NCBI GenBank assembly: GCA_964535805.1
Contig: CAZHUM010000002.1
Span: forward strand, 740 to 64,739
Reading direction: 5' to 3'
Length of the DNA stretch: 64,000 nucleotides
Source of the DNA: an uncultured Thermoplasmata archaeon
GTDB lineage: Archaea > Thermoplasmatota > Thermoplasmata > Halarchaeoplasmatales > Halarchaeoplasmataceae
Shown here piece after piece: positions 12,310 to 57,924 of this stretch; the first letter of the stretch is position 1; every line of letters starts with the position of its first letter. The position numbers and the translations under genes are program-made. A model generated the notes under the pieces. That model was given only the letters and a program-made list of their open reading frames with translations. It did no database searches and had not been told where the DNA came from.

Positions 12310-15309
12310 ATGGAGGAAGAAACTCCAGTCTTCTCCCTAAAACCAGAGTTGACCGGAAGAGACGAGGAGATCGAAAGGCTTGACAATCTATTCGATAATA
12401 CCGTCAAGGGGAAAGGCTCCACTGTTTTCATCTCAGGAGAAGCTGGTATCGGTAAGACCAGGCTCGTAGAGGAACTCATAAACACTGCAGAAGCAGAGAA
12501 CGCCAAGATAATCCAGGGATGGTGCCTCGCAGACAGCTTGGAGCCGTTGATGCCCTTCAAAGAAGGGCTGAGAGACGCGGGGCTCTCCCACTTCGTATCT
12601 AAGAATCCGCCACCGAAGGTGATCTCCGCTTACCTGATAGACATCTCCGGTATATTGATAGCAAAAGCGGAGAGAGAGAAAACGGAGCTGGACCCGGACA
12701 TCTTCGCATCCATGCTCACCGCCGTTGAGAACTTCGTAAGCGACTCGCTTTCCATGATGGGTGAGGAACACGGCAGCAAGTTGAACAGCATACGATACGG
12801 GGAGTTCGAGATACTAGTACAGTCTACATCCGAGGTGTCCATCGCTGCGGTCATCGAGGGGACCCACAGTGAATTTTTGATCAACGATATGAGGGACACC
12901 CTGAAGAACGTAAGCTCCGAGTTCAGCTCATGGGAGGGCGACATGAGATGTGTCGATAAGGTCAAACCCAAGGTCGATTGGTTCATCGAATCCAGAAAGT
13001 ACGAAGGGAGGCACTTGGTGGACGACCCGAAGATCAGGCAGGAGAACCTTTTCGACAACGTTCTCCTGGGGCTGAGAAGGATATCTGCCGAGCGTCCGGT
13101 AGTCGTTTTCATAGACGACCTCCAGTGGGCCGACCCGTCCTCGCTAAACATGCTCCACTATCTCTCGAGGAACACAAGAGATAACGGTGTTCTTATACTT
13201 GGAACGTACCGTCCAGAGGATATTCTGGAATTGTCATCAACAATTCCAAATGTCGATGGAATTTGCCAGAAAATTCCAACAGATGTTTCTGAAACGTATG
13301 ATGGAAAAACCCATCCGCTGAAGACGACCATGCAGAATATGAGCAGAGAAGACCTCTTCGAGACAGTGGAGCTGAGCAGGCTCGAGGAATCGACTGTCGA
13401 GGAATTCATGGAGAAAACACTGGGTAAAATAGAATTGAAGAGCGGGTTCGTTAAGGAAGTATACAGAGAGAGCGAGGGCAACCCGTTTTTCCTTCTCGAA
13501 GTAACCAAGATGCTGATAGAAGAAAAACATCTGATAAACGAAGATGGCACGTGGAAGATCAAGGATCCCGAGGAGGGTATCCACATACCGTCCAAAGTGT
13601 ACGACGTAGTGGTAAGACGACTCGAGAGGTTGATCCAAGAGCAGAGAGACCTCTTAGAATGCGCTAGCGTGGTGGGTGAAGAGTTCGAGAGTTCCGTGGT
13701 TGGAGAGGTCACGGGGATGAACAGAGTGAACCTACTGAAGAATCTGAACAAGATCGAGAGGACTCACAACTTGATACATTCCATAGAAAAAAAATACCGG
13801 TTCGACCACTCTAAGATAAGAGAAGTTCTCTACAACGGTATAAACGAGGAGCTGAGGCAGGAATATCATCGTATAATCGCCGATACCTACGTAGAGCTGT
13901 ACCAGGATGATATCGAAACCGTGATCGAGGATGTCGCAAATCACTACGACCTAGCGGAGGACGAAAGGGCGGGAGATTACTTGATACGAGCAGGAAACAA
14001 AACCAAGGACAGCTTCGGCAACGAGGAGGCAGTACTTTGGTACAAGAAATCTTTGAAATATCAACTTGAAAATACAGATCTAGCACAGGTATACAAGAAG
14101 ATGGGTGAGATACATTCTTTGACGGGGGACTACAAGGAATCTATAGAATATCTGGAAAGGGCTATCCCCAATATCGACGAAAGGGAAACCCAGGTTGATC
14201 TTTACTGGGATATAGCAAACGCCTACGAGAGGATGGGGGAGTACGATAGGGCATTGGAAGAATGCGAAAAAGGCTTGGATATTAATAAGGATATAAATAC
14301 CTCCGGTAAATCAAGAATCTTAGGGATGATGGGGTGGATATACATGAGAAGAAACGACTATGACAACGCTGAAGAAGTCCTTTTCCGAGCCCTTGAGGTA
14401 GCAGAGAGTATTGGGGGTGGGGATGAGATCGGGTACGTTTACAGCTTCTTAGGCAATTTCTACGATAACAAAGGTATCTACGACAAAGCACTGGATTATT
14501 ACAAAAAATCTCTTGAGATATTCCAGGAGATAGGGGATGTTATTTACCGATCGAAGGCACTGAACAACATCGGTTTGGTCAACTGGAAGATCGGGAACTT
14601 CGATAAGGCTGAAAAGTGCTACAGCGAGAGTTTGGAGATCAAAGAGAACGTGGGAGACAAGCACGGTATACTGGTCACCTTGGCAAACCTGGGCAGTCTA
14701 CACGAAGATATGGGAGATTACGAGAACGCCCTGGAAGAACACAAGAAATGTCTGGAGATAAGTGAGACCATCGGAGACAGTTTCAGTTCCTGCGTGGCCA
14801 GGTTCAATATCGGTTCCCTCTACAAAGTAAAAGATGAGATGGGGAGAGCTATGGAGTACTTCGAAGAAAGCCTAGCTCTGTGTAAAAAGATTAACAACGA
14901 TTGGATACAGGTCCATAATGAGTGTGAGATCGCCCATATAAAAGCGAATGAGGGTGATTTTGAGAGGGCTTTGGAATTGATCGAAGATGCTCTGAATAGA
15001 ACTAGAGAAATGGGTGCACAAGCCGAGGAGGGGCTTTGTCTTAAGGTCAAAGGTATCATCCATAGAGAGATGGAGGAATATGAGGAGGCAGAAGATGAGT
15101 TAAGAAAAGCTGAAAATATACTAGATGAAGTGGGCGATAAGAAAGAGATGGCTAAGACATATCTGGAATATGGGAGATTGTTCAAAGATAGGGGGGAATT
15201 TGGCAAAGCCCGCGAGAGATTGGAGAAGGCAAAAGAGATGTTCGGAGATATGGGGATGGGGATCTGGGTCGATAAAGCAGATGAGGATATGTCAACTCTA
15301 GATAGTTAA
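12310..15309 (+). CDS. STAND-type NTPase (AAA_16-like) with a roadblock/LC7-like insertion and C-terminal TPR repeats (999 aa)
   Basis: Walker A is GEAGIGKTRL and Walker B is PVVVFIDDLQWAD. About 120 aa between them (ISAYLIDISGILIAKAERE...EILVQSTSEVSIAAVIEG) follows the roadblock/MglB pattern. Residues 560-990 contain many TPR-like repeats (e.g. EEAVLWYKKSLKY, YDRALEECEKGLDI). Confidence 0.7.
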   Translation: MEEETPVFSLKPELTGRDEEIERLDNLFDNTVKGKGSTVFISGEAGIGKTRLVEELINTAEAENAKIIQGWCLADSLEPLMPFKEGLRDAGLSHFVSKNPPPKVISAYLIDISGILIAKAEREKTELDPDIFASMLTAVENFVSDSLSMMGEEHGSKLNSIRYGEFEILVQSTSEVSIAAVIEGTHSEFLINDMRDTLKNVSSEFSSWEGDMRCVDKVKPKVDWFIESRKYEGRHLVDDPKIRQENLFDNVLLGLRRISAERPVVVFIDDLQWADPSSLNMLHYLSRNTRDNGVLILGTYRPEDILELSSTIPNVDGICQKIPTDVSETYDGKTHPLKTTMQNMSREDLFETVELSRLEESTVEEFMEKTLGKIELKSGFVKEVYRESEGNPFFLLEVTKMLIEEKHLINEDGTWKIKDPEEGIHIPSKVYDVVVRRLERLIQEQRDLLECASVVGEEFESSVVGEVTGMNRVNLLKNLNKIERTHNLIHSIEKKYRFDHSKIREVLYNGINEELRQEYHRIIADTYVELYQDDIETVIEDVANHYDLAEDERAGDYLIRAGNKTKDSFGNEEAVLWYKKSLKYQLENTDLAQVYKKMGEIHSLTGDYKESIEYLERAIPNIDERETQVDLYWDIANAYERMGEYDRALEECEKGLDINKDINTSGKSRILGMMGWIYMRRNDYDNAEEVLFRALEVAESIGGGDEIGYVYSFLGNFYDNKGIYDKALDYYKKSLEIFQEIGDVIYRSKALNNIGLVNWKIGNFDKAEKCYSESLEIKENVGDKHGILVTLANLGSLHEDMGDYENALEEHKKCLEISETIGDSFSSCVARFNIGSLYKVKDEMGRAMEYFEESLALCKKINNDWIQVHNECEIAHIKANEGDFERALELIEDALNRTREMGAQAEEGLCLKVKGIIHREMEEYEEAEDELRKAENILDEVGDKKEMAKTYLEYGRLFKDRGEFGKARERLEKAKEMFGDMGMGIWVDKADEDMSTLDS

Positions 15310-16000: not shown

Positions 16001-16858
16001 ATGGTGTCTTTTATCTTAGAGATGGCTGGGAGTTTCGCTGTAGCCGTCGGGGGGTTTCTAGCCTTGATGAAGATCATTGTAAGCATGAGGGCACGAAAAG
16101 AGGTTTGGGACATATTCAAAAAGATGGAGGAAAGGGGCGATTTTCAAAGAAGGGAGGGCACCAAAACGGGCTACGGTATGCCGGATTTAGTAGGTAAAAC
16201 AGCGGGAAGGGAGATTTACGTACACCCAGTAAGATCAATGGGCGGTAAAAAACCCAGACCTTCAAAAACGGTATATGCCGTAGAAAGTAAACTGAACATC
16301 GATGAGGATATAATCATCTTTTCACCTGACACATCAGAGATGGACGAGAAACTACCGATTTTAGACGCCCCCCGTTTAGAAAAGTACGGTTATAACGTAG
16401 CTTCTGAGAGACATAAAAATCAGGGGATTGTGGATAAACTCCTCAATAAAGAAGTTGCCAACAGAGTGAACCGTTTAATAGTTAAGAACGGCGACCGTTT
16501 CAGGGCTGTTATAATCGAATCGGGGTTAGTCATGTTCAGCACCTTTAAAATCGAAAACCGCAGCGAGAAGATGAAAGAAAATATCGACGGCCTGGTCGAA
16601 CTTGTAGAACTGATGGAAGATAATTATACTGATCTAGAAGATGAACAGGACAATGAAAGATTAAAAGTGGTAAGAAAGAAAAGTAACTTCGTTTACGTCG
16701 ATTTAGCACTGATGGGTGCGGTTTCCGCATTGGCCATCTATATAATTTACTATCATATGATCGATCTGTCTTTCTTCTTCGTGAATCTAGGTGTGGTCTT
16801 GTTCATGATAAGCGCTTTAAGAGCTTATTCTATATCTCATACTAGAGGATGGCTTTGA
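16001..16858 (+). CDS. hypothetical membrane protein
   Basis: N-terminal and C-terminal hydrophobic helices flank a charged central region. Confidence 0.45.
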   Translation: MVSFILEMAGSFAVAVGGFLALMKIIVSMRARKEVWDIFKKMEERGDFQRREGTKTGYGMPDLVGKTAGREIYVHPVRSMGGKKPRPSKTVYAVESKLNIDEDIIIFSPDTSEMDEKLPILDAPRLEKYGYNVASERHKNQGIVDKLLNKEVANRVNRLIVKNGDRFRAVIIESGLVMFSTFKIENRSEKMKENIDGLVELVELMEDNYTDLEDEQDNERLKVVRKKSNFVYVDLALMGAVSALAIYIIYYHMIDLSFFFVNLGVVLFMISALRAYSISHTRGWL

Positions 16859-16882
16859 ATCCATATCATCTTGGATTGACGT

Positions 16883-18373
16883 TTACACCCTGGACCACAG
16901 TCCCGACAGCCTCTTGGTCCCCCACAAGCTGTTGATCTCGTAAACCGCCACCACTTTTTCATAGATATCTATCAGATTAAATGAATTACCCAACAGGCTC
17001 CTCTGGTAGATGCTGCTCAACGAGTTGGCGTTCACTATGATAGTCCCCTCCACACTCAGGAAGTGGGGGTGTGAAGATGTCCCGGTCAACACGAGATCGA
17101 TCCCGGAATCTACTACCTCTCTCAACAGGTCTCCGCTGTCCTCAAGCAGACCTTTCTCACGGCTGTGTGGTATGGGCAGAAGATTGTGATGTAGGAATAT
17201 CCCTTTGAAATCCTCTTCCCGGTCCTCGAGGTCTCTAAGTAGTGCGGTCCTCTCCGTCTTACCGACTATACCGATGGGTGAGTCGTACTGAGATGAAGCT
17301 ACGCCCTGGAGAATGATATCGTCGTTGGACCACGTTTGATCCAGTTCACCGAAGAACTTTGAGAATAGATGATAACCGAGGTAATTCAAGTCACGACCCG
17401 CAGGTGTATACACCACGGGAGCGTAGATCCTTGACAGGCGCTCGTGTGCCACCTGATAGTCCCGGGAGATGCCCTCTCTGACTATACCACCGCAGTGGAC
17501 CACTACGTCCGGGTCCAGGTTGTTGATGGTGTTGATAGCGTTCTTGAAATGTCTTTTAAGGAACACCCTGGAATCGGATATGAATGTATTAGAAATGTGA
17601 GCTATCCTGCATTCCCTCTTTCCGAAATCAGAAAAAATACGCTGTGTCTTCCTTGGAAAATCGAAGCGCTCCTCCCTGCCGTCCACTCTCTTAGTTATCA
17701 CGCTCTTACCTTTCTCGTCGATATCTATGATGTTGTAGGAGTTGACGTCTCCGTACCTCGTTTTGGTCGAAGAAACGGTTCCAGCATTTATCAGAACGGA
17801 GTCTTCTACCCGGTACACATTTGGATAATGCCGATGACCGGATATTATCAGATCGACATCCGAGTTGATGAACAGTTCCAGCAGATCACCGGCGTTGGAC
17901 AGTATGTTCCTCTCTCTTCCCGCCATGGGTATGGGTATGGTGTGATGGTGCAGCACGATTATCTTGATGGATTTGTCGTTGAATTCGTTCAACGCTTCCT
18001 CGAGAAAATCGAATTTTACCATGCCCACTCTGCCGTTGTTGCTGTCGGCTATGGCGCTGTTGACGAATATAACGACCGCATCATCGAAATCGTTGAAACC
18101 CGTGGATGGGCCGATGTAGTCTTCGAAAAGTTGAACTCCGCCGTTCCTTGCATCGTGGTTTCCCGGTACCACCACGTAGGGGACCTCCAACCTCTGGAAA
18201 AATCGCTGGGCTTCTTCGTACTCGGACAACCTACCACTCTGGGTGACGTCTCCGCTGTGTATCAATAGGTCGTACTTACCGCTGTTTATCTCTTTAAGAA
18301 CTTTCTCTAAAACCTCGCCGTTGAATTCGCTTCCACCATCGATGTGGGTGTCCGATATGTGGATTATCTTCAT
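16883..18373 (-). CDS. tandem calcineurin-like metallophosphoesterase (two MPP domains)
   Basis: Domain 1 has ISDTH..GD(x)n..GNHD..HH..GH. A second copy of the same motif series lies in residues ~260-496 (ISNTF..GG..HHN..GTSSH). Confidence 0.8.
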   Translation of the reverse strand: MKIIHISDTHIDGGSEFNGEVLEKVLKEINSGKYDLLIHSGDVTQSGRLSEYEEAQRFFQRLEVPYVVVPGNHDARNGGVQLFEDYIGPSTGFNDFDDAVVIFVNSAIADSNNGRVGMVKFDFLEEALNEFNDKSIKIIVLHHHTIPIPMAGRERNILSNAGDLLELFINSDVDLIISGHRHYPNVYRVEDSVLINAGTVSSTKTRYGDVNSYNIIDIDEKGKSVITKRVDGREERFDFPRKTQRIFSDFGKRECRIAHISNTFISDSRVFLKRHFKNAINTINNLDPDVVVHCGGIVREGISRDYQVAHERLSRIYAPVVYTPAGRDLNYLGYHLFSKFFGELDQTWSNDDIILQGVASSQYDSPIGIVGKTERTALLRDLEDREEDFKGIFLHHNLLPIPHSREKGLLEDSGDLLREVVDSGIDLVLTGTSSHPHFLSVEGTIIVNANSLSSIYQRSLLGNSFNLIDIYEKVVAVYEINSLWGTKRLSGLWSRV

Positions 18374-18374
18374 C

Positions 18375-18806
18375 TCACTCCCTCGAGATGTGGGTTTCCA
18401 TAGAGTGCCTTTGGATGTCCAAAAGGTCTCCCAAGGTCATTATACCGATTATTTCGCCCCTCTCTTTCACCAATATGTGTTTGATGTTCTGTTTGGACAT
18501 CAATTCGAGGACCTCCCTTATCTTCGCGTTGATATCGGAGGTTATCAGATCCTCGTTCATGATCTCTGTTACCTTCATATCCGGTTTCCGCCCCTTAGCC
18601 ACTACCTTCCTCTTTATGTCTCCATCTGTGAAGTACCCGATCACCTCATCCCCTTCCACTACTGCCAGAGAGCTGATGTTGAATTCCACCATCTTCTGTG
18701 CGGCTTCCCTTACTGTGCTGCTCGAGTCTATACCGATCAACCTTTTTGTAACGAACTGCCTGATCGGAAGGTCCAGTTCGTAAATATTTGGTAGATTATG
18801 GTTCAT
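18375..18806 (-). CDS. CBS-domain pair protein
   Basis: Two CBS motifs are present (SSLAVVEGDEVIGYFTDGDI and KHILVKERGEIIGIMTLGDL). Only 1 nt separates it from the phosphoesterase gene. Confidence 0.8.
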   Translation of the reverse strand: MNHNLPNIYELDLPIRQFVTKRLIGIDSSSTVREAAQKMVEFNISSLAVVEGDEVIGYFTDGDIKRKVVAKGRKPDMKVTEIMNEDLITSDINAKIREVLELMSKQNIKHILVKERGEIIGIMTLGDLLDIQRHSMETHISRE

Positions 18807-19683
18807 CTTCCATCACCTCCTCCAGTCCGGAGAAAACGTCTTCCAATATGACCTTCAAGGTTTTTTCGAAATCCACATTTTCTACCACGGTTATACCTCC
18901 CTTCAAAGCCATGCTGACGACGTAATCGTGTATCTCCCTGATGCGATCTAAGCGGTCTATGTATCGACTCGGGTCCCTCAGACTACCCTCTTCTCGAGAG
19001 TGGAAGTGCTGTATGTGTTGTTCGATATCCGGCACATCGAGAACGTATTGATAAGTGTGGGCGGATGATTTTCTGTCTGTCTGGATGAACCCCGGTACGA
19101 TATGCACCCCGTTCAGAACCATGTTCAGTCCCTCCTTACGTCCTCGGTTCATCACGGCGACCAGCCCCTCGCTCACCAAGCTCACCTGCTGCTCGAAGGC
19201 GTAGATCAGTTTATTGCTGACGAAGGGTGTCCTCAATTTATCGCATGCGGTAAAAGTTGATTGGTGGAGTGTGGGTATCAGTTCCGGTGATATTATGGAA
19301 CGCATTATCTCTCTGATCGTGTCGGTTCCGATAACCCTGTTGATACCGAGACGATGTCCGATCTCGGCGGATAAGCTCGACTTACCAACACCCGGACCTC
19401 CGCCGATCATGATGAAAAGCGGCTGATCAAGGTACTTTATCTTCCTCCTCACCCGGTAGTATCGCTCTTCAAGGTTTCTGTTTCGATGCTTCAGTTCTTT
19501 AGATACCATGTCCTTGATCTCTGAAGAGCTTATCTCTTCGAAGCCCTCCTTTTCTATCCTATCTTTTATATTCTCGACTATCTCGTACGCCTCTTCCACG
19601 GTCATGCCCAAACTGGATATCGACCTTGCAAGGATCCCCTTCGAGAACGGATACGTTTTATCACCTTTCTTTACTTCAACCAT
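18796..19683 (-). CDS. 2-phosphoglycerate kinase
   Basis: P-loop is IGGGPGVGKS. Overall length and N-terminal region match the archaeal 2PGK family. The gene overlaps the cDPG synthetase gene by 8 nt. Confidence 0.7.
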   Translation of the reverse strand: MVEVKKGDKTYPFSKGILARSISSLGMTVEEAYEIVENIKDRIEKEGFEEISSSEIKDMVSKELKHRNRNLEERYYRVRRKIKYLDQPLFIMIGGGPGVGKSSLSAEIGHRLGINRVIGTDTIREIMRSIISPELIPTLHQSTFTACDKLRTPFVSNKLIYAFEQQVSLVSEGLVAVMNRGRKEGLNMVLNGVHIVPGFIQTDRKSSAHTYQYVLDVPDIEQHIQHFHSREEGSLRDPSRYIDRLDRIREIHDYVVSMALKGGITVVENVDFEKTLKVILEDVFSGLEEVMEDEP

Positions 19684-21103
19684 CTGAGTGCCTCCTTTTT
19701 GCTTCTTTACATAGATCTATTATCGCCTTTTCAATGTTTTCGATGGTACCGCCCACGAGTACGGGTTCGTTGTGCATGAACACTACGTCGACGTTCTTCC
19801 TCTTGGCGGTCACCGCGGCAACGTCTATGGAAGCCGCTTTTATCTCGGTGAGCAGGACATCGCTTTGAGCCAATCCTTCTTTCAGATCTTTTCTCAGAAG
19901 TGGTCTATTCGAAAGGTGAGTGGTTATGCCGGTCACTTCACAGTCGTAGTCTTCCTGCACACTTTTTTCTATGATATCGGCTACCTCTCCCTTGGCTGTC
20001 GTTGCGATGAATACCTTTTTTCCACTTATGTCACCGAGGGGCTTAGGTCTGAATACAGTCAGCGCGATGTCCATATCTGGATTGATCTCTCTGATCCCTT
20101 TGTACACCGCATCGACTTTTTCCTTATCGGCCACCGGTTCTTCACACATGGTGACGATGGCTAACTGAGAGGTCAATATGCGGTACTCTCCCAAGTATCC
20201 TGTTATGTGCTCTATGGGTTGTCCAGCCCCCACCAATACGATCCTCTTGTCGGTCTTAACCGGAGGGAAGGTTGCTCCTGAGCCCTCCATTACCACGAAC
20301 TTTTGCGGTATCTCGTTCGTCATCATGGCTCCCTGCAGCACGTTGGAAGAGAACGGATTGCCGGCCATACCCCCACCGCATCTCCTGCAGCCAACTGTGG
20401 GAACGTCACCGAGCAGAGCGTCCTCCCAGTAGTCAGATGCTGCGTGGCCGCCTCTCTCTGCGACGGATATCAGAGTGTCCGAAGACATCTCCATCTTGGA
20501 GGTGTCCACGTAATCTGGCTCCGGCGGTCCCCCTCTGCCCATGCATACTACGACCGGGTCGAAGTTCTCTTTTTTGAGTGTCTGGGCCACGGTGACACCC
20601 ACGGCTGTTTTTCCCACCCGTTTAGCGGTCCCTATTATCGAGATGCTGGGTTTCTCGAGTATTTCGTCTTCTCTAGGAGGGTCGTAAACGAAGTCCGCCC
20701 CCATGTAGGTTACCTCGTGTTTGAGTGTCCTGCAGATCAGATTGAATCTGCTTTTGTAGTCAACCACGGGTTCGTCGGAAAGGTCCAACACGATATCCGG
20801 CCCTGTCTCCTGGATGGCTTTTTCTAAAAGATCGAAAGGTAGTTCATCGTCGCTTTTATCCATGTAGACCACGTAATCCACATCCTCGCCTCCCAGCTCT
20901 TCGATAGCGTTCTCCACTTTTTCGGTTCCGCCCAGGAAGACCAGGGAGACTATGATCCCATGCATCTCCTCTATCTCTTCCAGCGTCCACTTGGTGACCG
21001 GTGGATAATGTTCTCCGTCCACCAAACACAGTATCCTTTTATCCCTTAAAATAGCCTTATTACGCTCTAATAAGTGTACAGAACCCTTTGAAGATTTTCC
21101 CAT
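19676..21103 (-). CDS. cyclic 2,3-diphosphoglycerate synthetase
   Basis: About 475 aa. Family resemblance to Methanothermus cDPGS. It is co-operonic with 2PGK, the other enzyme of the cDPG pathway. Confidence 0.65.
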   Translation of the reverse strand: MGKSSKGSVHLLERNKAILRDKRILCLVDGEHYPPVTKWTLEEIEEMHGIIVSLVFLGGTEKVENAIEELGGEDVDYVVYMDKSDDELPFDLLEKAIQETGPDIVLDLSDEPVVDYKSRFNLICRTLKHEVTYMGADFVYDPPREDEILEKPSISIIGTAKRVGKTAVGVTVAQTLKKENFDPVVVCMGRGGPPEPDYVDTSKMEMSSDTLISVAERGGHAASDYWEDALLGDVPTVGCRRCGGGMAGNPFSSNVLQGAMMTNEIPQKFVVMEGSGATFPPVKTDKRIVLVGAGQPIEHITGYLGEYRILTSQLAIVTMCEEPVADKEKVDAVYKGIREINPDMDIALTVFRPKPLGDISGKKVFIATTAKGEVADIIEKSVQEDYDCEVTGITTHLSNRPLLRKDLKEGLAQSDVLLTEIKAASIDVAAVTAKRKNVDVVFMHNEPVLVGGTIENIEKAIIDLCKEAKRRHSDG

Positions 21104-21209
21104 CTCTGATTCACCTGGTTTTTAAACACCTTATGGAACAAACGGTATATTTGGTTTACGCTCTAAAGTCAAATATTAAACCTTTTATCCAACCCCTCTT
21201 TACGGACGG

Positions 21210-22097
21210 ATGATGAAAGTGGGTTATCCCTGCCTGAACCGGACCTTGGAGTGCACTTCCAGTAGAACTTTCAGGTTGAAGAACTACGGCGAAAAAAGGT
21301 TGAAGGAAACCGTGGAGGATAATCTAGAGTGCTTGAAGAAGATCTTGGCATTCAACGTTAAAAATGATCTATATTTCTTCCGCATCACGTCGGATCTGGT
21401 GCCCTTCGCATCTCACCCCGTCTGCGAGTTCGATTGGCAGGGCTATTTCAAGGATGGATTCCGAGAGATAGGTGATTACATAGAAGAAAACGATGTGCGG
21501 ATATCCATGCACCCGGACCAGTTCATCGTTTTGAATTCGAACAAAGAGGAGGTTTACGATAGAGCGGTGATGGAATTGGTGTATCATGCGGATGTATTGG
21601 ATTCTATGAACCTAAAAACCGATGCGAAGATACAGCTTCATGTCGGCGGGGTCTACGGTGACAAGGAGAAAAGCATTGAGCGGTTCATCGAGAGGTACGG
21701 TGAACTGGAACCAAAGGTCAAGAGAAGATTGGTCATCGAGAACGACGACAGGAGCTACTGTCTGAGAGATTGTCTAGATATCCATCAAGACACTGGAGTC
21801 CCGATTTTGTTCGACAGCTTCCACCACGAGTTGAACAACAGTGGAGAGCCGCTCGAGAGGGCATTCGAGCTGTTCACTAGCACTTGGAAAAAACAAGACG
21901 GGCTTCCCATGGTGGACTACAGCAGTCAAAGGACGGGAGGTAAAAGGGGTTCACACGCAGAGAGCATAGATCCAGCACACTTCCGGTCATTCCTAGATGA
22001 CACTTCGAACTACGATTTCGACCTCATGCTGGAGATAAAGGACAAGGAAAGGAGTGCTCTGAAGGCGCTGGATATCATCCCACGGGACAGGTTGTAG
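21210..22097 (+). CDS. uvdE: UV damage endonuclease UvdE
   Basis: The N-terminus VGYPCLNRTL resembles UvdE GYVCINLSL. Size and conserved acidic/His positions fit the UVDE family. Confidence 0.75.
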   Translation: MMKVGYPCLNRTLECTSSRTFRLKNYGEKRLKETVEDNLECLKKILAFNVKNDLYFFRITSDLVPFASHPVCEFDWQGYFKDGFREIGDYIEENDVRISMHPDQFIVLNSNKEEVYDRAVMELVYHADVLDSMNLKTDAKIQLHVGGVYGDKEKSIERFIERYGELEPKVKRRLVIENDDRSYCLRDCLDIHQDTGVPILFDSFHHELNNSGEPLERAFELFTSTWKKQDGLPMVDYSSQRTGGKRGSHAESIDPAHFRSFLDDTSNYDFDLMLEIKDKERSALKALDIIPRDRL

Positions 22098-33474: not shown

Positions 33475-34779
33475 CTATGTATATACGAGACGACAAGCCC
33501 AACTAGTAAGGCAGGGGTTAGGACACATTGGTTCGTTTTTATCGCTGACATACAATCTAGTTGGATGTATTCCACCGTTCAATATCTTAACACCAAGAGC
33601 ATCAAAACCCGAAAAAGTCGCCGTTATTTTTTCTTCAAGGGTTTTACCGAACAAAATAGTTTCGTCGCTCTTCCGCTTATAACGGACAAGCATGTTCATA
33701 TTATCATCGTATCTCATCACCTGATGGAAATGTACCAAACCATTGTTTTTATCAGTTTTAAAAGTAGTAAGGAAAAAGTTGTCCTCAGGTATTATTGTTA
33801 TTACACCATTATAGTCAAGTTCTGTGATTTCATAAAAGTTTAGATGCTTTGTACTTACCATCTTCACTATAGAACTAATATATTGCCCTCTAGTATTGGT
33901 TACCGTATATTTAGTTGTAGTTATTAGTCCAATCTGAGATATTACCTCCGAAGTTATATTTACCTCCGAATTAACCGTATCTACACCCCAGACAGTAAAC
34001 ACTTCTGTGTATGGGTTAAATGAAAAGGCCATTTCAGGAGTTGTTTGAACCAATATATATATAGACTGAGATGCCCCATCGCTTTGCCTTGTGACGTTTA
34101 GTTTGATTGCCTGATTCAAAATTGTGTTCTCAGGTACGTAAAGTGTTTCAGATACCGCTACATTTTCTCCTGGTTGTGCAGTAATTTCTGTTGGTGGTAT
34201 TGCACCTTGTAAAACCCATCCTTCAGGTATTGTTGATTCATCCGCTTCTAATGTAAATGTTTCTTGTGCCATAATATTTTCATTCCTGACATGGATTGTA
34301 TCTGTTGCTGATGTTCCCGGTGCTATGTCCAGGGGAATAACACATTCATGTCCAACATTGTTACCTTCATTCGATTCAGCGATTGTATCTGTTGTGTCTA
34401 GGACCAGTTCGAAGTTCACTTGATAAGATGCAAGTGCCTCCACTACGTATTTAACTCCTTTAATCCCACCAGCTCTGATTGGCGGTTCAACCCATATATC
34501 AAATGTTTCTGTTGGTTCCTGCCAGAAACCAGCTGTTTCCGCATATTTTAATTCCATCCAAAAGCCATCTTCAACATCTGCATCCCCTATATTTTCTATG
34601 TATATAGTCATTGGTAATTCTTCTCCTTCTATTACAGGATAAACAGCGCCTATGCCCTTACCTACTAAATCCGGTTGTCTTTGTTCCGCTTGTACCGCTG
34701 TAGCTGGCATTATAGCCAACCCACTAAAAACCAATAAACCAATCACTAACAGTGACGGTCCTATTTTACTTATATTCAT
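33475..34779 (-). CDS. secreted or surface protein with N-terminal CARDB-like domain
   Basis: A signal peptide is followed by DLVGKGIGAVYPVIEGEELPMTIYIENIGDADVEDGFWMELKY, which has a CARDB-like pattern. It is flanked by AT-rich DNA. Confidence 0.5.
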   Translation of the reverse strand: MNISKIGPSLLVIGLLVFSGLAIMPATAVQAEQRQPDLVGKGIGAVYPVIEGEELPMTIYIENIGDADVEDGFWMELKYAETAGFWQEPTETFDIWVEPPIRAGGIKGVKYVVEALASYQVNFELVLDTTDTIAESNEGNNVGHECVIPLDIAPGTSATDTIHVRNENIMAQETFTLEADESTIPEGWVLQGAIPPTEITAQPGENVAVSETLYVPENTILNQAIKLNVTRQSDGASQSIYILVQTTPEMAFSFNPYTEVFTVWGVDTVNSEVNITSEVISQIGLITTTKYTVTNTRGQYISSIVKMVSTKHLNFYEITELDYNGVITIIPEDNFFLTTFKTDKNNGLVHFHQVMRYDDNMNMLVRYKRKSDETILFGKTLEEKITATFSGFDALGVKILNGGIHPTRLYVSDKNEPMCPNPCLTSWACRLVYT

Positions 34780-35033
34780 GTATATCTCACCTATCAGAAG
34801 TAATGTATTGTTATTATTTATATTTATCGCATATTAGATATATATATATATAATATAGTTTCGATACTTCTTCTCCTCTCATCATCAACCACCCGGTTGA
34901 CAATGTATTACAACCCTGCAGTTATGATCACAACTTCACTGGAACACATTACCTGGCTGAATACCTTTCTAACTTGTCTACATATATAAGAGAGGTTTGT
35001 GTATCTAATTTTCAGTTTCCTTATGTATTTCTT

Positions 35034-35702
35034 TTAACTCCAGTTTTCCATCCTACCGATCACAATTTCGATCCATTCCCTATAATCATCATCAGATTTT
35101 TTATTAATTTTCATATTCGAAAACAACTTTTTATCTCCTCCCGTTTCACGATAATCTTTACAGTGTATAAGGAAATCCGAGATAACATCATCTCCAACGA
35201 AGTTCCGTAATCTGTTAGGATCCTCTAACAATTCTTTTACTTCACTATCAGATAATCCTCTCTCATACTTCATCTCCTCGACGAAGTCGTCCCTTATCCT
35301 CTCTTCCAGCAGTGCTTGACTCATCTCCAATCCCTCGGAAGACCTTCTAACCAGGTCGGAGGTTTCTTTCAACTTGGAGCCGACTAACAGATCCAACTCG
35401 TTTGTATTTCTCCAGCCCATCAACGGACAACTTTTATCATAAATTGTCTTAGCTATAAATGATGCAACTATAGACAGGCTCAAAATAATTATAAACCAGC
35501 GTATCATCCCACTATAAGGTACCCACCAAATCGTCAATAATATAATAGCTGAAAGGAAAACAATTACAAATGAAAAAATATTTTTGAAGCGATCCACCCC
35601 GGATTCACGATTACCTAGTGCAGCGCTGTGTTTGAATCTCTGAGGCATGCGTACGAGATTATCGTCTTCGAATTCGTCTAGATATTCTTCTTCAAATTTC
35701 AT
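35034..35702 (-). CDS. 2-TM membrane protein, paralog 2
   Basis: Same architecture as paralog 1. The C-terminal ~110 aa are near-identical to paralog 3. Confidence 0.55.
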   Translation of the reverse strand: MKFEEEYLDEFEDDNLVRMPQRFKHSAALGNRESGVDRFKNIFSFVIVFLSAIILLTIWWVPYSGMIRWFIIILSLSIVASFIAKTIYDKSCPLMGWRNTNELDLLVGSKLKETSDLVRRSSEGLEMSQALLEERIRDDFVEEMKYERGLSDSEVKELLEDPNRLRNFVGDDVISDFLIHCKDYRETGGDKKLFSNMKINKKSDDDYREWIEIVIGRMENWS

Positions 35703-35724
35703 TGTGAACCGACCTCTATTATCT

Positions 35725-36396
35725 TCAACTCCAGTTTTCCATCCTATCGATCACTTTTTCGATCCGTTTCCTATAATCTTCATTTGATTTTATGTCTACT
35801 TCTACATTCGAAAACAACTTTTTATCTCCTCCCGTTTCCCGATAATCTTTACAGTGTATAAGGAAATCCAAGATAATATCATCTCCAACGAAGTTCCGTA
35901 ATCTGTTAGGATCCTCCAACAATTCTTTTACTTCACTATCAGATAATCCTCTCCCATACTTCATCTCCTCGACGAAGTCGTCCCTGATCCTCTCTTCCAG
36001 CAGTGCTTGACTCATCTCCAATCCCTCGGAAGACCTCCTAACCAGGTCGGAGGTTTCTTTCAACTTGGAGCCAACAACGACATCCAATTCGTTTCTATTC
36101 CTCCAGTTTATGAGTGGTATGCTCCTTTTATGGAATATCCTCAACAGTAGAGAAACTACGATTCCCAATGCTAACAATATACACATCCATCTCAATGCAC
36201 CGCTATTTTTTATCCAGGGAATTAATATGAGAAGGAAAAAGGCGAGGATAAACGCTATAAAAGTAAATATGCTGTCTAGATAGTCTTTACCAGTTTCGCG
36301 CATCCCTAATGCCCCTTTTTCCCTATAATCGCAAATACCTGGGGCCAAAAAATCGTTTTCAACCTTTTCTTCCCATTCTTCATGCAATTTCATCAT
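35725..36396 (-). CDS. 2-TM membrane protein, paralog 3
   Basis: Its 3' ~400 bp are over 95% identical to the paralog 2 region. Confidence 0.55.
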   Translation of the reverse strand: MMKLHEEWEEKVENDFLAPGICDYREKGALGMRETGKDYLDSIFTFIAFILAFFLLILIPWIKNSGALRWMCILLALGIVVSLLLRIFHKRSIPLINWRNRNELDVVVGSKLKETSDLVRRSSEGLEMSQALLEERIRDDFVEEMKYGRGLSDSEVKELLEDPNRLRNFVGDDIILDFLIHCKDYRETGGDKKLFSNVEVDIKSNEDYRKRIEKVIDRMENWS

Positions 36397-55305: not shown

Positions 55306-57924
55306 TTACCGCCAGACCTTCTTCATGATGTTCTTGTAGTTCCTCATCTCTTCCAAAACCTTTTCGTAGTCTTCATCCTCTTTTGATTGATTTGCTCTCT
55401 TGAGGATATCTATCTGTTTGGATACATCTACGCCAGATATTTTTGCTTTTTTCAACTCGGTCTGGGCCTTTTTCACAAGATGTTTTAATTTGCCTGGGAC
55501 TTCTTTTAATATTTCCTCCTTTGCCATCTCAGCATACTCTTCAGCTTTGTCCCAATCACCGACCGATAATTCACCCTTGGCCTTGTTCAACAACTCATTT
55601 GCTTTAGTTGTGTCTATACCCATTACCTCTGCATCGAATATCAAGCTCTCAACATTTGAAAGGGATGTCTCAGCCTCTGAAAGGGGCTCTCCTATCGCTG
55701 TTACCTTTTGTTCCGCCTTGGAAAACATCTCCAAAGCAGATTTATAATCGTCTACATCCATAGCACTTCTTGCTTCTTCTAGGTAGTTTTCTATTTCCTC
55801 GAAATCGTGGTCCATGCTTTCTTCTAGTTTTAACTCGATAGAGACCATCTTTTCGTCCATCTCCTCCTTCAATATACTCAAAAGCTTGTCTCTGCTTTTT
55901 TCCAGGGATTCAAGAGCCATATCTAGATCTTGATGGTTCGTGCTTTTTAAGGCGTCGTTGATTATCTCTTTTCCACCCTCTATTTTGAATCCAACCTTTT
56001 TGGAACGTGTGAGGATATCTTTTATTTCATCAGCCTTTTCTCGGATATCAGCGACTGTGATCTCTTCTTCGACGACCCCAGGAACTTTATCCACCTCAAC
56101 AAAAACCTCCTCTTGCTCTACTTCCGTTATCTCGGGTTCTTCCCCTTTTTCAAACTCGGTAACCTCACCAGCTAGTACATTTTCCATCTCTATAATCAGT
56201 TCATCAAGGTTAGCGATGGCTTCATCGTATTCTCCGCTGTCAGCTCTGTCCTTTTCTTCCTTGATCATCTCCAGGTACCCTTTATAGTCCAGACCATCTT
56301 CTTTCATCTCCTTTATCCTGGACTTGGCCTCGTCTATTTTCACCATGACCCGTAGTATCTTTTCCGTATCTTCTACGATCTCTTCCGCTTTTTTCAGTGC
56401 CTCTTCGTATTTTTTCTCCCCTTTGAGCATGTGGACATCTTCGACCCCTAGTTCCAATTCATCAGTGTGTATTTTAGTGTGCGATATCTGATCTAGATTA
56501 TTTTCCGCTTCTTTAATTTTTTCTTCTATATCCACCATCAGGTCTGCTTTCTGTTCAGACATTGCGAGCTCTTCTTCTAATTCTGCTTCAACCTCTGCAT
56601 GATGCAACTGCTCTTCGATCTTCCCTAAAGTACTATCTAAAATACTCATGGCCACGTCGTATTCACCCTGATTCACTTTTTTCTTGGAATTTTTTAATGC
56701 CTTGAGATATGGTGTGTAATCCATATCTTCTTTATCCAGTTCCCTAATCTTTTGTTTCCCTTCCAGGAACCTTTCGTTGAGCTGTATTATCTTGTCCGCT
56801 TTGTTGTTAAAATCCTCGATGGTGTTAAGTGCGTCGATATAGTCTCCTTCCTTCCTAGCCTTCATGGTCACCTTGATCAGATCTTTTACGTTATCCAAGT
56901 TGAATTTCGTTTTCTTGATTTCAGAAAAATTGTCTTTTGCAATTTTTATCTTCTGATCCAGTTCCTTTTTAATCTTTCCTTTTTTCTCATCTTCTTTTTG
57001 CCTTTCAAGTGCCCTTTCTTCCTCTTCTTTTTTATGCTTAGATATCTGCTGATCACAATTTTCATACATGGATTCTAGATATTCGATAGAAGATGCATAG
57101 TCTCCTTCATCAGCCAGCTTTTTTGCCTCTTTGAGTTTATCGATTTCCTCTTCGTAATCGATACCCAGGTCTTTCATCTCTAATATCATGCCTTTACATT
57201 CTTTGATCTTATGGAAGATTTCGAATACCTGTTCCGAGTGTTTAGATATTTCTTCCAGTAATTCCAATCCCTTTTCGTAATTATCAGCTTTCTTCTCTTG
57301 TACGGTCCGTTTAAGGAGGGTTTTGATGTCATTGATATCTATCTTTGTGTCTCTTAGATCCGATATCTTAGACCTTGCTTTCGCCAGCTCTTCATCGAAT
57401 CGTTCTACAAGCTCAGGGTCGATTTCTTCCTCTTCGACCTCTTCTTCAAATTCTTCAGCTTCTGCAAATTCAATACCACAAGAAGGACACTTATTAGCGT
57501 CTTCAGGCACCTCTGCCCCGCACTCTGGACATTCGAAGACGATCATCTCTGATTCATCTATCTCTTCTTCCACCTCTTCATCTTCAACTTCTTCTTCGAG
57601 TTCTAAATCAACGTCCTCTTCGATCTCTTCTTCGGTTGCCTCTTCTTTCACTTCTTCCTCGATCTCTTCTCCACTCTCTTCAGGACCTGCGCCCCCACCT
57701 CCGATGGTTTTAATGGTTTCGATGAGTTCTTCATCTTCAATGTCCCCTTCTAAAGTCTCTATCATCCCACTTATATCTTCCTCTGGCTCACCGGTCTCGA
57801 TTTCATCGGCTATATCAAACAGATTTAGGTCAACACCGCAGACTGGGCATTTTTCTGATTCTGCAGGAATCTCAGAGTCGCATACTGGACATACTATTGT
57901 TTCTTCTTCAGGCAATGTGAGCAC
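55306..57924 (-). CDS. large acidic coiled-coil protein (872 aa) with two Cys4 zinc ribbons and about six internal ~110-aa repeats
   Basis: The zinc ribbons are CPVCDSEIPAESEKCPVCG and CPECGAEVPEDANKCPSCG. They are separated by poly-Glu tracts. Then come repeated units each containing a G-I/L-D-Y/V...GDY-x-x-A TPR-like helix pair. The protein is highly charged. Confidence 0.6.
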   Translation of the reverse strand: MLTLPEEETIVCPVCDSEIPAESEKCPVCGVDLNLFDIADEIETGEPEEDISGMIETLEGDIEDEELIETIKTIGGGGAGPEESGEEIEEEVKEEATEEEIEEDVDLELEEEVEDEEVEEEIDESEMIVFECPECGAEVPEDANKCPSCGIEFAEAEEFEEEVEEEEIDPELVERFDEELAKARSKISDLRDTKIDINDIKTLLKRTVQEKKADNYEKGLELLEEISKHSEQVFEIFHKIKECKGMILEMKDLGIDYEEEIDKLKEAKKLADEGDYASSIEYLESMYENCDQQISKHKKEEEERALERQKEDEKKGKIKKELDQKIKIAKDNFSEIKKTKFNLDNVKDLIKVTMKARKEGDYIDALNTIEDFNNKADKIIQLNERFLEGKQKIRELDKEDMDYTPYLKALKNSKKKVNQGEYDVAMSILDSTLGKIEEQLHHAEVEAELEEELAMSEQKADLMVDIEEKIKEAENNLDQISHTKIHTDELELGVEDVHMLKGEKKYEEALKKAEEIVEDTEKILRVMVKIDEAKSRIKEMKEDGLDYKGYLEMIKEEKDRADSGEYDEAIANLDELIIEMENVLAGEVTEFEKGEEPEITEVEQEEVFVEVDKVPGVVEEEITVADIREKADEIKDILTRSKKVGFKIEGGKEIINDALKSTNHQDLDMALESLEKSRDKLLSILKEEMDEKMVSIELKLEESMDHDFEEIENYLEEARSAMDVDDYKSALEMFSKAEQKVTAIGEPLSEAETSLSNVESLIFDAEVMGIDTTKANELLNKAKGELSVGDWDKAEEYAEMAKEEILKEVPGKLKHLVKKAQTELKKAKISGVDVSKQIDILKRANQSKEDEDYEKVLEEMRNYKNIMKKVWR

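Follow-up and report, generated by a model that had tools for sequence, protein, structure and literature searches.

Synthesis genes for cyclic 2,3-diphosphoglycerate in a halophile-related Thermoplasmata archaeon form a conserved four-gene cassette with a CBS-pair protein and a tandem metallophosphoesterase

Among the genes of an uncultured Thermoplasmata archaeon, a group of four attracted our attention as a possible unit for the metabolism of cyclic 2,3-diphosphoglycerate (cDPG). They lie in a stretch of 64,000 nucleotides (nt), hereafter the window (GenBank assembly GCA_964535805.1, contig CAZHUM010000002.1, positions 740 to 64,739), where four co-directional open reading frames (ORFs) of the minus strand encode proteins of 475, 295, 143 and 496 amino acids (aa). 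In the order of transcription these are a cDPG synthetase (cDPGS, 19676-21103), a kinase resembling 2-phosphoglycerate kinase (2PGK, 18796-19683), a stand-alone CBS-pair protein (18375-18806) and a tandem metallophosphoesterase (MPE, 16883-18373). Both the coordinates and the four identities had been put forward in an earlier note on this DNA, and they hold against the ORF list and the profile and structure matches. Public contigs with an identical MPE carry independent gene calls of 475, 295, 143 and 496 residues, in which Pfam recognizes CpgS_N, ATP-cone, CBS and Metallophos, respectively.

The four genes are tightly packed. The cDPGS and kinase genes overlap by 8 nt and the kinase and CBS genes by 11 nt, as the earlier note had stated, whereas its third overlap, of 1 nt, is really a spacer of that length: the TGA of the CBS gene (18375-18377) is followed by one base (18374) and by the ATG of the MPE gene (18371-18373), with a Shine-Dalgarno-like GGGAG just 5′ of this ATG junction. 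Upstream, 106 bp (21104-21209) separate cDPGS from a divergent UvdE gene (21210-22097, plus strand). This intergenic region is the probable promoter region of the operon, and a direct reading of it finds a TATA-like A/T-rich TTTAATATTT at 21171-21180 and a Shine-Dalgarno-like AGGTGA at 21111-21116, 7 nt ahead of the cDPGS ATG. At the other end, a spacer of 24 nt (16859-16882) runs from the MPE stop to the stop of a convergent gene of 285 aa (16001-16858, plus strand) and closes the operon. A scan for sigma-70 promoters and bacterial terminators, a method that is inapplicable to archaea, returned nothing exceeding shuffled sequences. From the packing of the genes and the opposite orientation of those flanking them, we infer that all four are co-transcribed.

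The superfamilies of all the parts are already known, and so is the pathway of the first two genes. In Methanothermus fervidus, the homologous kinase turns 2-phosphoglycerate into 2,3-diphosphoglycerate (2,3-DPG) and cDPGS closes the ring to give cDPG, with two ATP used in total (PMC1224877, PMC12136491). The window cDPGS aligns with the crystallised M. fervidus enzyme (PDB 8ORK, E=5e-139, residues 21-466 to 4-450; 8ORU is matched as well), its homologues carry PF27272 (CpgS_N), its P-loop GTAKRVGKT fits the family pattern GT[GA]KR[IV]GKT, and 83 invariant columns are common to it and to 14 diverse homologues of 47-64% identity. By these sequence criteria its identity can be regarded as secure. 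The kinase combines an N-terminal ATP-cone (PF03477, E=3e-10, residues 3-80) with P-loop matches from residue 85 onwards, and its best NCBIfam model is NF003259 (2-phosphoglycerate kinase), with 304 bits, below the curated equivalog cut-off of 343. The superfamily of this model includes kinases for other substrates, such as mevalonate-3-phosphate 5-kinase, and a structure search found no solved structural relative of the window protein. The kinase gene follows cDPGS in 24 of 28 clustered sources (the window and 27 fetched loci), and it is mainly this fixed position that leads us to call the product 2PGK-like. The first half of the operon thus has homologues in the M. fervidus pair, with the same kinase family match and the same adjacency; it differs from that pair in its halophile-related host, in a kinase that falls short of the equivalog cut-off, and in the addition of CBS and MPE genes.

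The last gene of the operon encodes two domains of the MPE fold, recovered by PF00149 in two stretches (98 bits) and rendered by an AlphaFold 2 model as a globular protein with two MPE-type folds (predicted local distance difference test, pLDDT, 93; predicted template modelling score, pTM, 0.92). The N-terminal domain (residues 1-245; 17639-18373, minus strand) is predicted to be catalytic. In an alignment of 98 homologues its five motifs are invariant (D8-x-H10, G41-D42, G71-N72-H73-D74, H142-H144 and G179-H180-x-H182), as are the metal ligands D8, H10, D42, N72, H143, H180 and H182 and the catalytic H73. Its nearest solved structures are the diesterases GpdQ of Enterobacter aerogenes and Rv0805 of Mycobacterium tuberculosis (16-23% identity), followed by purple acid phosphatases; GpdQ is matched with E=8e-11 by sequence and E=2e-12 by fold. 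All the motifs of these two enzymes, which share the binuclear-metal MPE fold, are found in the window N-domain. In the same 98-sequence alignment, the family-specific residues R76, R115 and K204 are invariant, while R153, R155 and R206 are kept in at least 90% of the sequences. Most of these basic positions are common to single-domain homologues linked to cDPGS (described below), R115, R153 and R155 lack a basic counterpart in the GpdQ alignment, and the six residues together would fit a polyanionic substrate.

The C-terminal domain (residues 246-496 and the stop codon; 16883-17638, minus strand) is paralogous to the first (32% identity, E=7e-34). The five canonical motifs are not conserved here, with five of the seven metal-ligand positions counted as replaced: the corresponding stretches read SNTF, HCGG, PAGRD, HHN and GTSSHP, with D8 replaced by N262, H10 by F264, D42 by G296, N72 by G326, H73 by R327, H180 by T432 and H182 by S434, and H396 kept. 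The description of this protein as a double calcineurin-like phosphoesterase therefore stands as regards the two folds, but not as regards two active enzymes, since only the N-domain keeps the metal motifs. The C-domain is nonetheless under at least as strong conservation as its neighbour, and numerous Arg, Asp, Asn, Ser, Tyr and His residues are invariant in it; by its sequence we class it as a conserved pseudo-enzyme whose metal site has been lost. Intermediate states occur in more distant two-domain relatives (30-47% identity), among them P0367, where DTH/GD/HHH/GHKH is retained, and indicate a progressive decay of the metal site after the duplication and fusion of a single-domain enzyme. 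Inactive MPE folds with lost metal ligands are known in Vps29, whose chains appear among the fold matches of the window protein, and in the B-subunits of archaeal and eukaryotic DNA polymerases; unlike these, the dead domain of the window is fused to an active paralogue and conserved no less than it. GpdQ and Rv0805 are dimeric enzymes, in keeping with the fused two-domain layout of the MPE, which differs from both in its active-plus-dead tandem and a wholly different genomic context, and from the aligned GpdQ in its additional basic residues. No such fused tandem occurs among the solved proteins matched in the fold search.

The third protein of the operon is a standard Bateman pair (PF00571 in two stretches, 81 bits), whose closest solved relative is the uncharacterised PH0107 (2YZI, E=4e-33). 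Across 43 distinct archaeal and bacterial orthologues, G57, T60 and D63 of the first GxxTxxD motif are invariant and the equivalents G121 and D127 of the second are kept in 93-95%, so that GxxTxxD in both CBS motifs is compatible with ribose binding. In the same set the C-terminal tail ETxISRE is highly conserved, with E137 (95%), T138 and I140 kept. Encoded at 18375-18398, this tail is a candidate docking peptide for the MPE. The role of adenylate sensor that the earlier note had suggested for this protein is plausible, while its actual ligand and its contact with the MPE are matters of conjecture. A mechanistic analogy can be found in the CBS-regulated family II inorganic pyrophosphatases, where adenine nucleotides on a CBS pair set the activity of a hydrolase of P-O-P bonds. 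The CBS region of the family II pyrophosphatase model NF011447 does match the window CBS protein (E=1.3e-10, 40.5 bits against a cut-off of 522), but those enzymes have a DHH fold with the CBS pair inserted in the same polypeptide, whereas the window has an MPE fold and a separate CBS protein.

How general is this arrangement? A cDPGS profile scan over one genome per GTDB species yielded 80 loci and a metagenome scan with an MPE profile yielded 32 two-domain loci, and the pooled tally of two-domain MPE loci is 46 (individual loci are designated L below). In every one of these 46 the CBS gene lies immediately upstream of the MPE gene, typically as a stop codon, 1 nt and ATG. The full order cDPGS-2PGK-CBS-MPE is present in 31 of them (14 genome loci, 16 metagenome loci and one Logan contig with an identical MPE); as for the rest, two have a convergent cDPGS (L107, L108), five have none in the flank, and eight contigs are too short to decide. 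The kinase is found upstream of CBS-MPE wherever the length of the contig permits, with the exception of L097. Hosts of the same gene order comprise Thermoplasmata, Candidatus Saliniplasma, Ca. Natronoplasma, Methanomassiliicoccales, Aminicenantes, Brocadiia, Bradymonadales, unclassified bacteria and a bin labelled Aenigmatarchaeota. This last bin (L013) shares the layout flanking the cassette with a Thermoplasmata metagenome-assembled genome (MAG; L014), and its label is probably a binning artefact. In a Bipolaricaulota locus (L075) the CBS-MPE pair is divergent to cDPGS-2PGK, and there, as in the two convergent cases, the pair is kept together despite its different placement. No fifth conserved gene accompanies the cassette across the loci compared, and the flanking genes differ by lineage. 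Bacterial and archaeal MPEs are equally similar to that of the window (55-65% identity), which indicates lateral spread of the cassette. A linkage unique to this genome would have spoken against a functional bond of the CBS protein and the phosphoesterase with the cDPG genes, as the earlier note had recognized; its recurrence in dozens of archaeal and bacterial loci, many of them of salt-lake organisms, speaks for it.

Phosphoesterases also occur beside cDPG genes in other architectures. Single-domain MPE homologues of ~270 aa, ~40% identical to the N-domain and with the same signature as the window MPE (PGNHDxRN.GY, DSSxPD..GRVG, HHH..P.P.TGRERN...DAGD, GHKHVP), are encoded upstream of cDPGS, at a distance of 39-201 nt, in 29 of the 31 loci of high-GC soil bacteria that could be assessed (for example L124:5925-6770 and L155:7956-8792, within the subset L118-L160). 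The layout in these soil lineages is MPE-cDPGS-GlpX (a class II fructose bisphosphatase)-Rho, with no adjacent 2PGK, and an Actinomycetota MAG (L046:9138-10001) has MPE-cDPGS-2PGK-transaldolase-Rho. A divergent marine form of the two-domain MPE (36% identity) follows cDPGS-2PGK without a CBS gene. In haloarchaea, the slot after cDPGS-2PGK is occupied, on the same strand, by a PHP-domain phosphoesterase of ~260 aa with the motif DLHVHTxxSDG, as seen in five Natronorubrum-type loci and the scaffold-level assembly GCA_000383975.1 (L016:12442-13236, L017:12456-13247, L018:12406-13185, L020:5023-5802, L021:12242-13021, L169:8502-9281). The haloarchaeal operon thus has the same first two genes and a metal-dependent phosphoesterase in third place, but of PHP rather than MPE type and with no CBS gene. 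Its nearest named relatives, a 3′,5′-nucleoside bisphosphate phosphatase and a ribosyl cyclic-phosphate diesterase, are both matched far under their cut-offs. The haloarchaeal protein looks like a non-orthologous displacement of the same step, and the repeated recruitment of phosphoesterases of differing folds beside cDPG genes is a classic sign that a pathway step is missing.

Which step could this be? The action of a metal phosphoesterase on cDPG or 2,3-DPG is well supported by genomic context, and we consider it rather probable that the MPE has one of these two compounds as its substrate. With more reserve, we propose that the four genes may constitute a cassette for cDPG metabolism, with CBS-MPE as its regulated breakdown module. 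The binuclear-metal N-domain would hydrolyse a phospho-bond of the pathway's own product, most likely by opening the cyclic pyrophosphate so that cDPG becomes 2,3-DPG, an assignment that we likewise put forward as tentative. The C-domain would probably be the fused, non-catalytic partner of a pseudo-dimer, replacing the second subunit of an ancestral homodimer, and perhaps a binding site for an anionic ligand or effector; its conservation suggests ligand binding or an obligatory pseudo-dimer interface instead of a scaffold role. The CBS protein, for its part, might act as a gate on the hydrolase, with adenine nucleotides or ionic strength as the signal, and is the obvious candidate for this role because of the GxxTxxD in both motifs, the ETxISRE tail and its strict adjacency to the MPE. 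Gating of this kind would stop a futile cycle where the genes for synthesis and breakdown share one transcript.

Several considerations favour ring opening. The nearest relatives of the MPE are diesterases, and in cDPG each phosphorus has a single negative charge, as in a phosphodiester. LpxH and ADP-ribase-Mn show that enzymes of the MPE fold can cleave P1,P2-disubstituted pyrophosphates, and soil lineages pair the MPE with cDPGS alone. Moreover, the activity itself exists: the part of a review that summarises Sastry et al. 1992 describes in Methanothermobacter thermautotrophicus a hydrolase converting cDPG into 2,3-DPG, membrane-bound and inhibited by K+ and phosphate, to which no gene is assigned there (PMC1224877). 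The reaction is the one proposed here for the MPE, and its regulated breakdown of cDPG parallels the proposed gating by the CBS protein. To our knowledge, no gene for this activity is known. The candidacy of the MPE as cDPG hydrolase, already raised in the earlier note, is strengthened by the recurrent linkage to cDPG genes and the intact metal site of the N-domain, while the choice of ring opening over dephosphorylation of 2,3-DPG is plausible only.

The closest competitor keeps the pathway and changes the bond. As a 2,3-DPG phosphatase yielding 2- or 3-phosphoglycerate, the MPE would set the pool of 2,3-DPG that feeds cDPGS, or would finish the breakdown after the ring had been opened by another enzyme or by the reverse reaction. 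The most tightly conserved set is indeed kinase-CBS-MPE, this trio is found with no cDPGS in its flank in Rhodohalobacter sp. 8-1 and at L086/L087, L094 and L095, and the kinase-linked and cDPGS-linked architectures have no metabolite other than 2,3-DPG in common; a bisphosphate phosphatase, in addition, is one of the named proteins nearest to the PHP protein of haloarchaea. However, the single-domain MPE of soil bacteria pairs with cDPGS and has no kinase beside it, the closest solved relatives are diesterases and not monoesterases, and if one transcript encoded both the kinase and the phosphatase of a bond, the result would be a purely ATP-wasting cycle unless gating were strict, so that we hold this alternative to be unlikely, if a serious one. 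Somewhat less likely still is a signalling role, where the MPE would be a phosphodiesterase for a nucleotide such as cAMP, 2′,3′-cNMP, c-di-AMP or Ap4A with the CBS protein as receptor, regulating osmolyte synthesis and leaving cDPG untouched. Class III cyclic-nucleotide phosphodiesterases are relatives of the MPE (the CpdA model NF008359, Rv0805, GpdQ), the ribose-binding GxxTxxD is kept in both CBS motifs, and there are precedents for the control of osmolyte systems by stand-alone CBS-pair proteins with bound c-di-AMP. Yet the CpdA model scores 70.6 bits, far under its curated cut-off of 225, the additional conserved Arg and Lys are missing from the aligned GpdQ, and the linkage continues in lineages with no CBS gene at all; the different phosphoesterase fold in the haloarchaeal slot is also more readily understood if the step is metabolic and acts on the phosphorylated compounds of the pathway itself.

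An interpretation of CBS and MPE as mere passengers with no relation to the neighbouring cDPG genes, or as an anti-phage module beside them, seems to us very improbable. The matches that could suggest a defence system are those to the NCBIfam anti-phage phosphoesterase and CBS models of DS9 and DS11 (NF053862 with 74.9 bits and NF053863 with 26.7 bits), which fall far short of their curated cut-offs (420 and 260 bits), together with PADLOC hits to PDC-S10 and PDC-S60 that are limited to residues 1-75 and to the generic N-terminal MPE motif; being sub-threshold and confined to a generic motif, they led us to reject this interpretation. Passengers, moreover, would hardly keep their order across archaeal and bacterial phyla where all the flanking genes differ, nor would their linkage be found again in several independent architectures.

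Some observations weigh against our proposal of a CBS-gated cDPG hydrolase. The substrate of the MPE is deduced from sequence and context. The known hydrolase activity is membrane-bound, whereas all four window proteins are predicted to be soluble, with no hydrophobic segments (Kyte-Doolittle means over 19 residues peak at 0.95 in the MPE and do not exceed 1.15 in the remaining three). In the fetched genome loci of Methanobacteriales (Methanobrevibacter, Methanobacterium, Methanosphaera), and in those of Methanopyri, cDPGS stands alone within 10 kb, with no linkage to MPE or 2PGK; Methanobrevibacter does have a single-domain homologue, but elsewhere in the genome from cDPGS. A two-domain relative of 32% identity is unlinked to cDPG genes. 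Finally, the trio 2PGK-CBS-MPE lacks cDPGS in a flank of 2.5-10 kb in Rhodohalobacter sp. 8-1 (GCA_037646475.1, L163:8673-11497, no cDPGS within 10 kb) and in the four metagenome loci cited above, a situation where 2,3-DPG would fit better than cDPG as substrate unless cDPGS is encoded elsewhere in those genomes. The spacer from the CBS stop codon to the MPE start is ~12-20 nt in these trios, versus 1 nt in the window. A DUF1611 gene downstream of the Rhodohalobacter trio was considered as a cryptic relative of cDPGS and discarded, as it is DgcN (562 bits, cut-off 480) with a profile probability to cDPGS of 0.5%.

The methanogen loci deserve some comments of their own. The single-domain MPE of Methanobrevibacter has 247-264 aa and the family signature (GRERNVLSDAGD, GHKHVPN) in L113-L117, L120-L122, L126, L127, L129 and L156; in one of these (L117:7941-8735) its neighbours are an aldo-keto reductase/ferredoxin gene on one side and a gene for an NYN-domain RNase on the other. 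The cDPGS neighbourhoods of Methanobacteriales contain no phosphoesterase, and their only conserved companion is an ORF of ~95 aa (MYKDEMIQLHQFLVYVLKYL...; L023:9632-9919 and equivalents) upstream of cDPGS in 28 of 34 loci, with a median start offset of -578 nt and on the cDPGS strand in 24 of the 28. In Ca. Methanohalarchaeum thermophilum (L170), cDPGS is followed by a 264-aa protein without a Pfam match, and a separate ATP-cone protein of 151 aa is encoded upstream; the two ORFs (L170:4812-5267 and L170:7515-8309) may represent a split 2PGK.

The host of the window is, judging from its proteins, a halophile-related Thermoplasmata archaeon. The closest orthologues of its MPE and cDPGS (88-90% identity) belong to a Thermoplasmata MAG, and the next to Ca. 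Saliniplasma and Natronoplasma, genera of Halarchaeoplasmatales, a halophilic order that was described from the sediment of soda-saline lakes. Other window proteins are of archaeal type (ArcS-like, AMP-phosphorylase-like, and a methionyl-tRNA synthetase with a tRNA-binding domain), the window proteome is moderately acidic (median pI 5.3), and no methanogenesis genes were found among ten large window proteins scanned. The presence of the operon had been taken in the earlier note as an argument for a thermophile, a conclusion that we cannot maintain. Homologues of cDPGS occur in gut Methanobrevibacter, Methanosphaera stadtmanae, Methanobacterium, Natronorubrum, Halalkalicoccus and high-GC soil bacteria, and with gut methanogens, haloarchaea and soil bacteria among its hosts the gene does not mark thermophily. 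With an IVYWREL index of 0.435 the window would be predicted to come from an organism growing at 72 °C, but the value is 0.433 in Natronorubrum control loci; inflated by acidic proteomes, this amino-acid index is uninformative here and was set aside. The single tRNA of the window has 55% GC. As far as the sequence goes, the operon gives no evidence for thermophily, and caution is advisable when cDPGS is used as a genomic marker of this trait.

As recently as 2023, a structural paper called cDPG exclusive to hyperthermophilic methanogens (PMC10690619), and the compound is in development as a commercial extremolyte (PMC12136491). The synthesis genes prove to be widespread, from halophilic Thermoplasmata, haloarchaea and gut methanogens to soil Actinomycetota and several bacterial phyla, and in many of these lineages they are joined to a specific, uncharacterised family of phosphoesterases with a dedicated CBS partner. 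Searches of the full-text literature turned up no account of either the CBS/MPE extension or the PHP variant, no gene assigned to cDPG hydrolase, and no paper in which CBS or MPE genes are connected with cDPG. The apparent novelty lies in the conserved cassette of four genes, in a cDPGS-associated subfamily of MPEs that joins active enzyme and pseudo-enzyme in tandem, and in the breadth of the pathway among halophiles and bacteria. The MPE may offer a clean example of an enzyme homodimer turned into a fused active/pseudo-enzyme tandem, and the cassette supplies the first testable gene candidate for a cDPG-degrading enzyme, which makes the old question of the hydrolase gene and the control of turnover directly testable: cDPG can now be made enzymatically, and cultivable carriers exist in Natronorubrum (PHP variant) and Rhodohalobacter sp. 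8-1 (kinase-CBS-MPE trio).

Taken to its full extent, our conjecture would be that CBS-MPE is the long-missing cDPG hydrolase, a pseudo-dimeric metalloenzyme gated by nucleotides or ionic strength, and that cDPG, far from being peculiar to hyperthermophilic methanogens, is a widespread, horizontally exchanged anionic osmolyte and K+ counter-ion of halophilic anaerobic archaea and bacteria. This composite picture is more doubtful than the ring-opening activity taken by itself. If true, the four-gene cassette would be a self-contained make-and-break unit, and the PHP protein of haloarchaea and the single-domain MPE of Actinomycetota would fill the same role elsewhere.

The surroundings of the operon hold other features. 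At a distance of 1.5 kb, the window encodes on the plus strand (12310-15309) a 999-aa AAA_16 ATPase with a long TPR array, of MalT-like STAND architecture, followed by a CMD-family gene and by the convergent, unassigned 285-aa gene mentioned above, whose product has a hydrophobic C-terminus; in L001 and L004, from related Thermoplasmata, synteny with the cassette extends to the CMD and 285-aa genes. Further away, a minus-strand gene (55306-57924) encodes an 872-aa protein with 29% Asp+Glu and a pI of 4.4, in which a zinc-ribbon motif near residue 130 is the sole recognisable feature. Two stretches of low GC content, at positions 1-2000 (33%) and 34001-36000 (38%) against a window background of 41-51%, are possibly foreign DNA.

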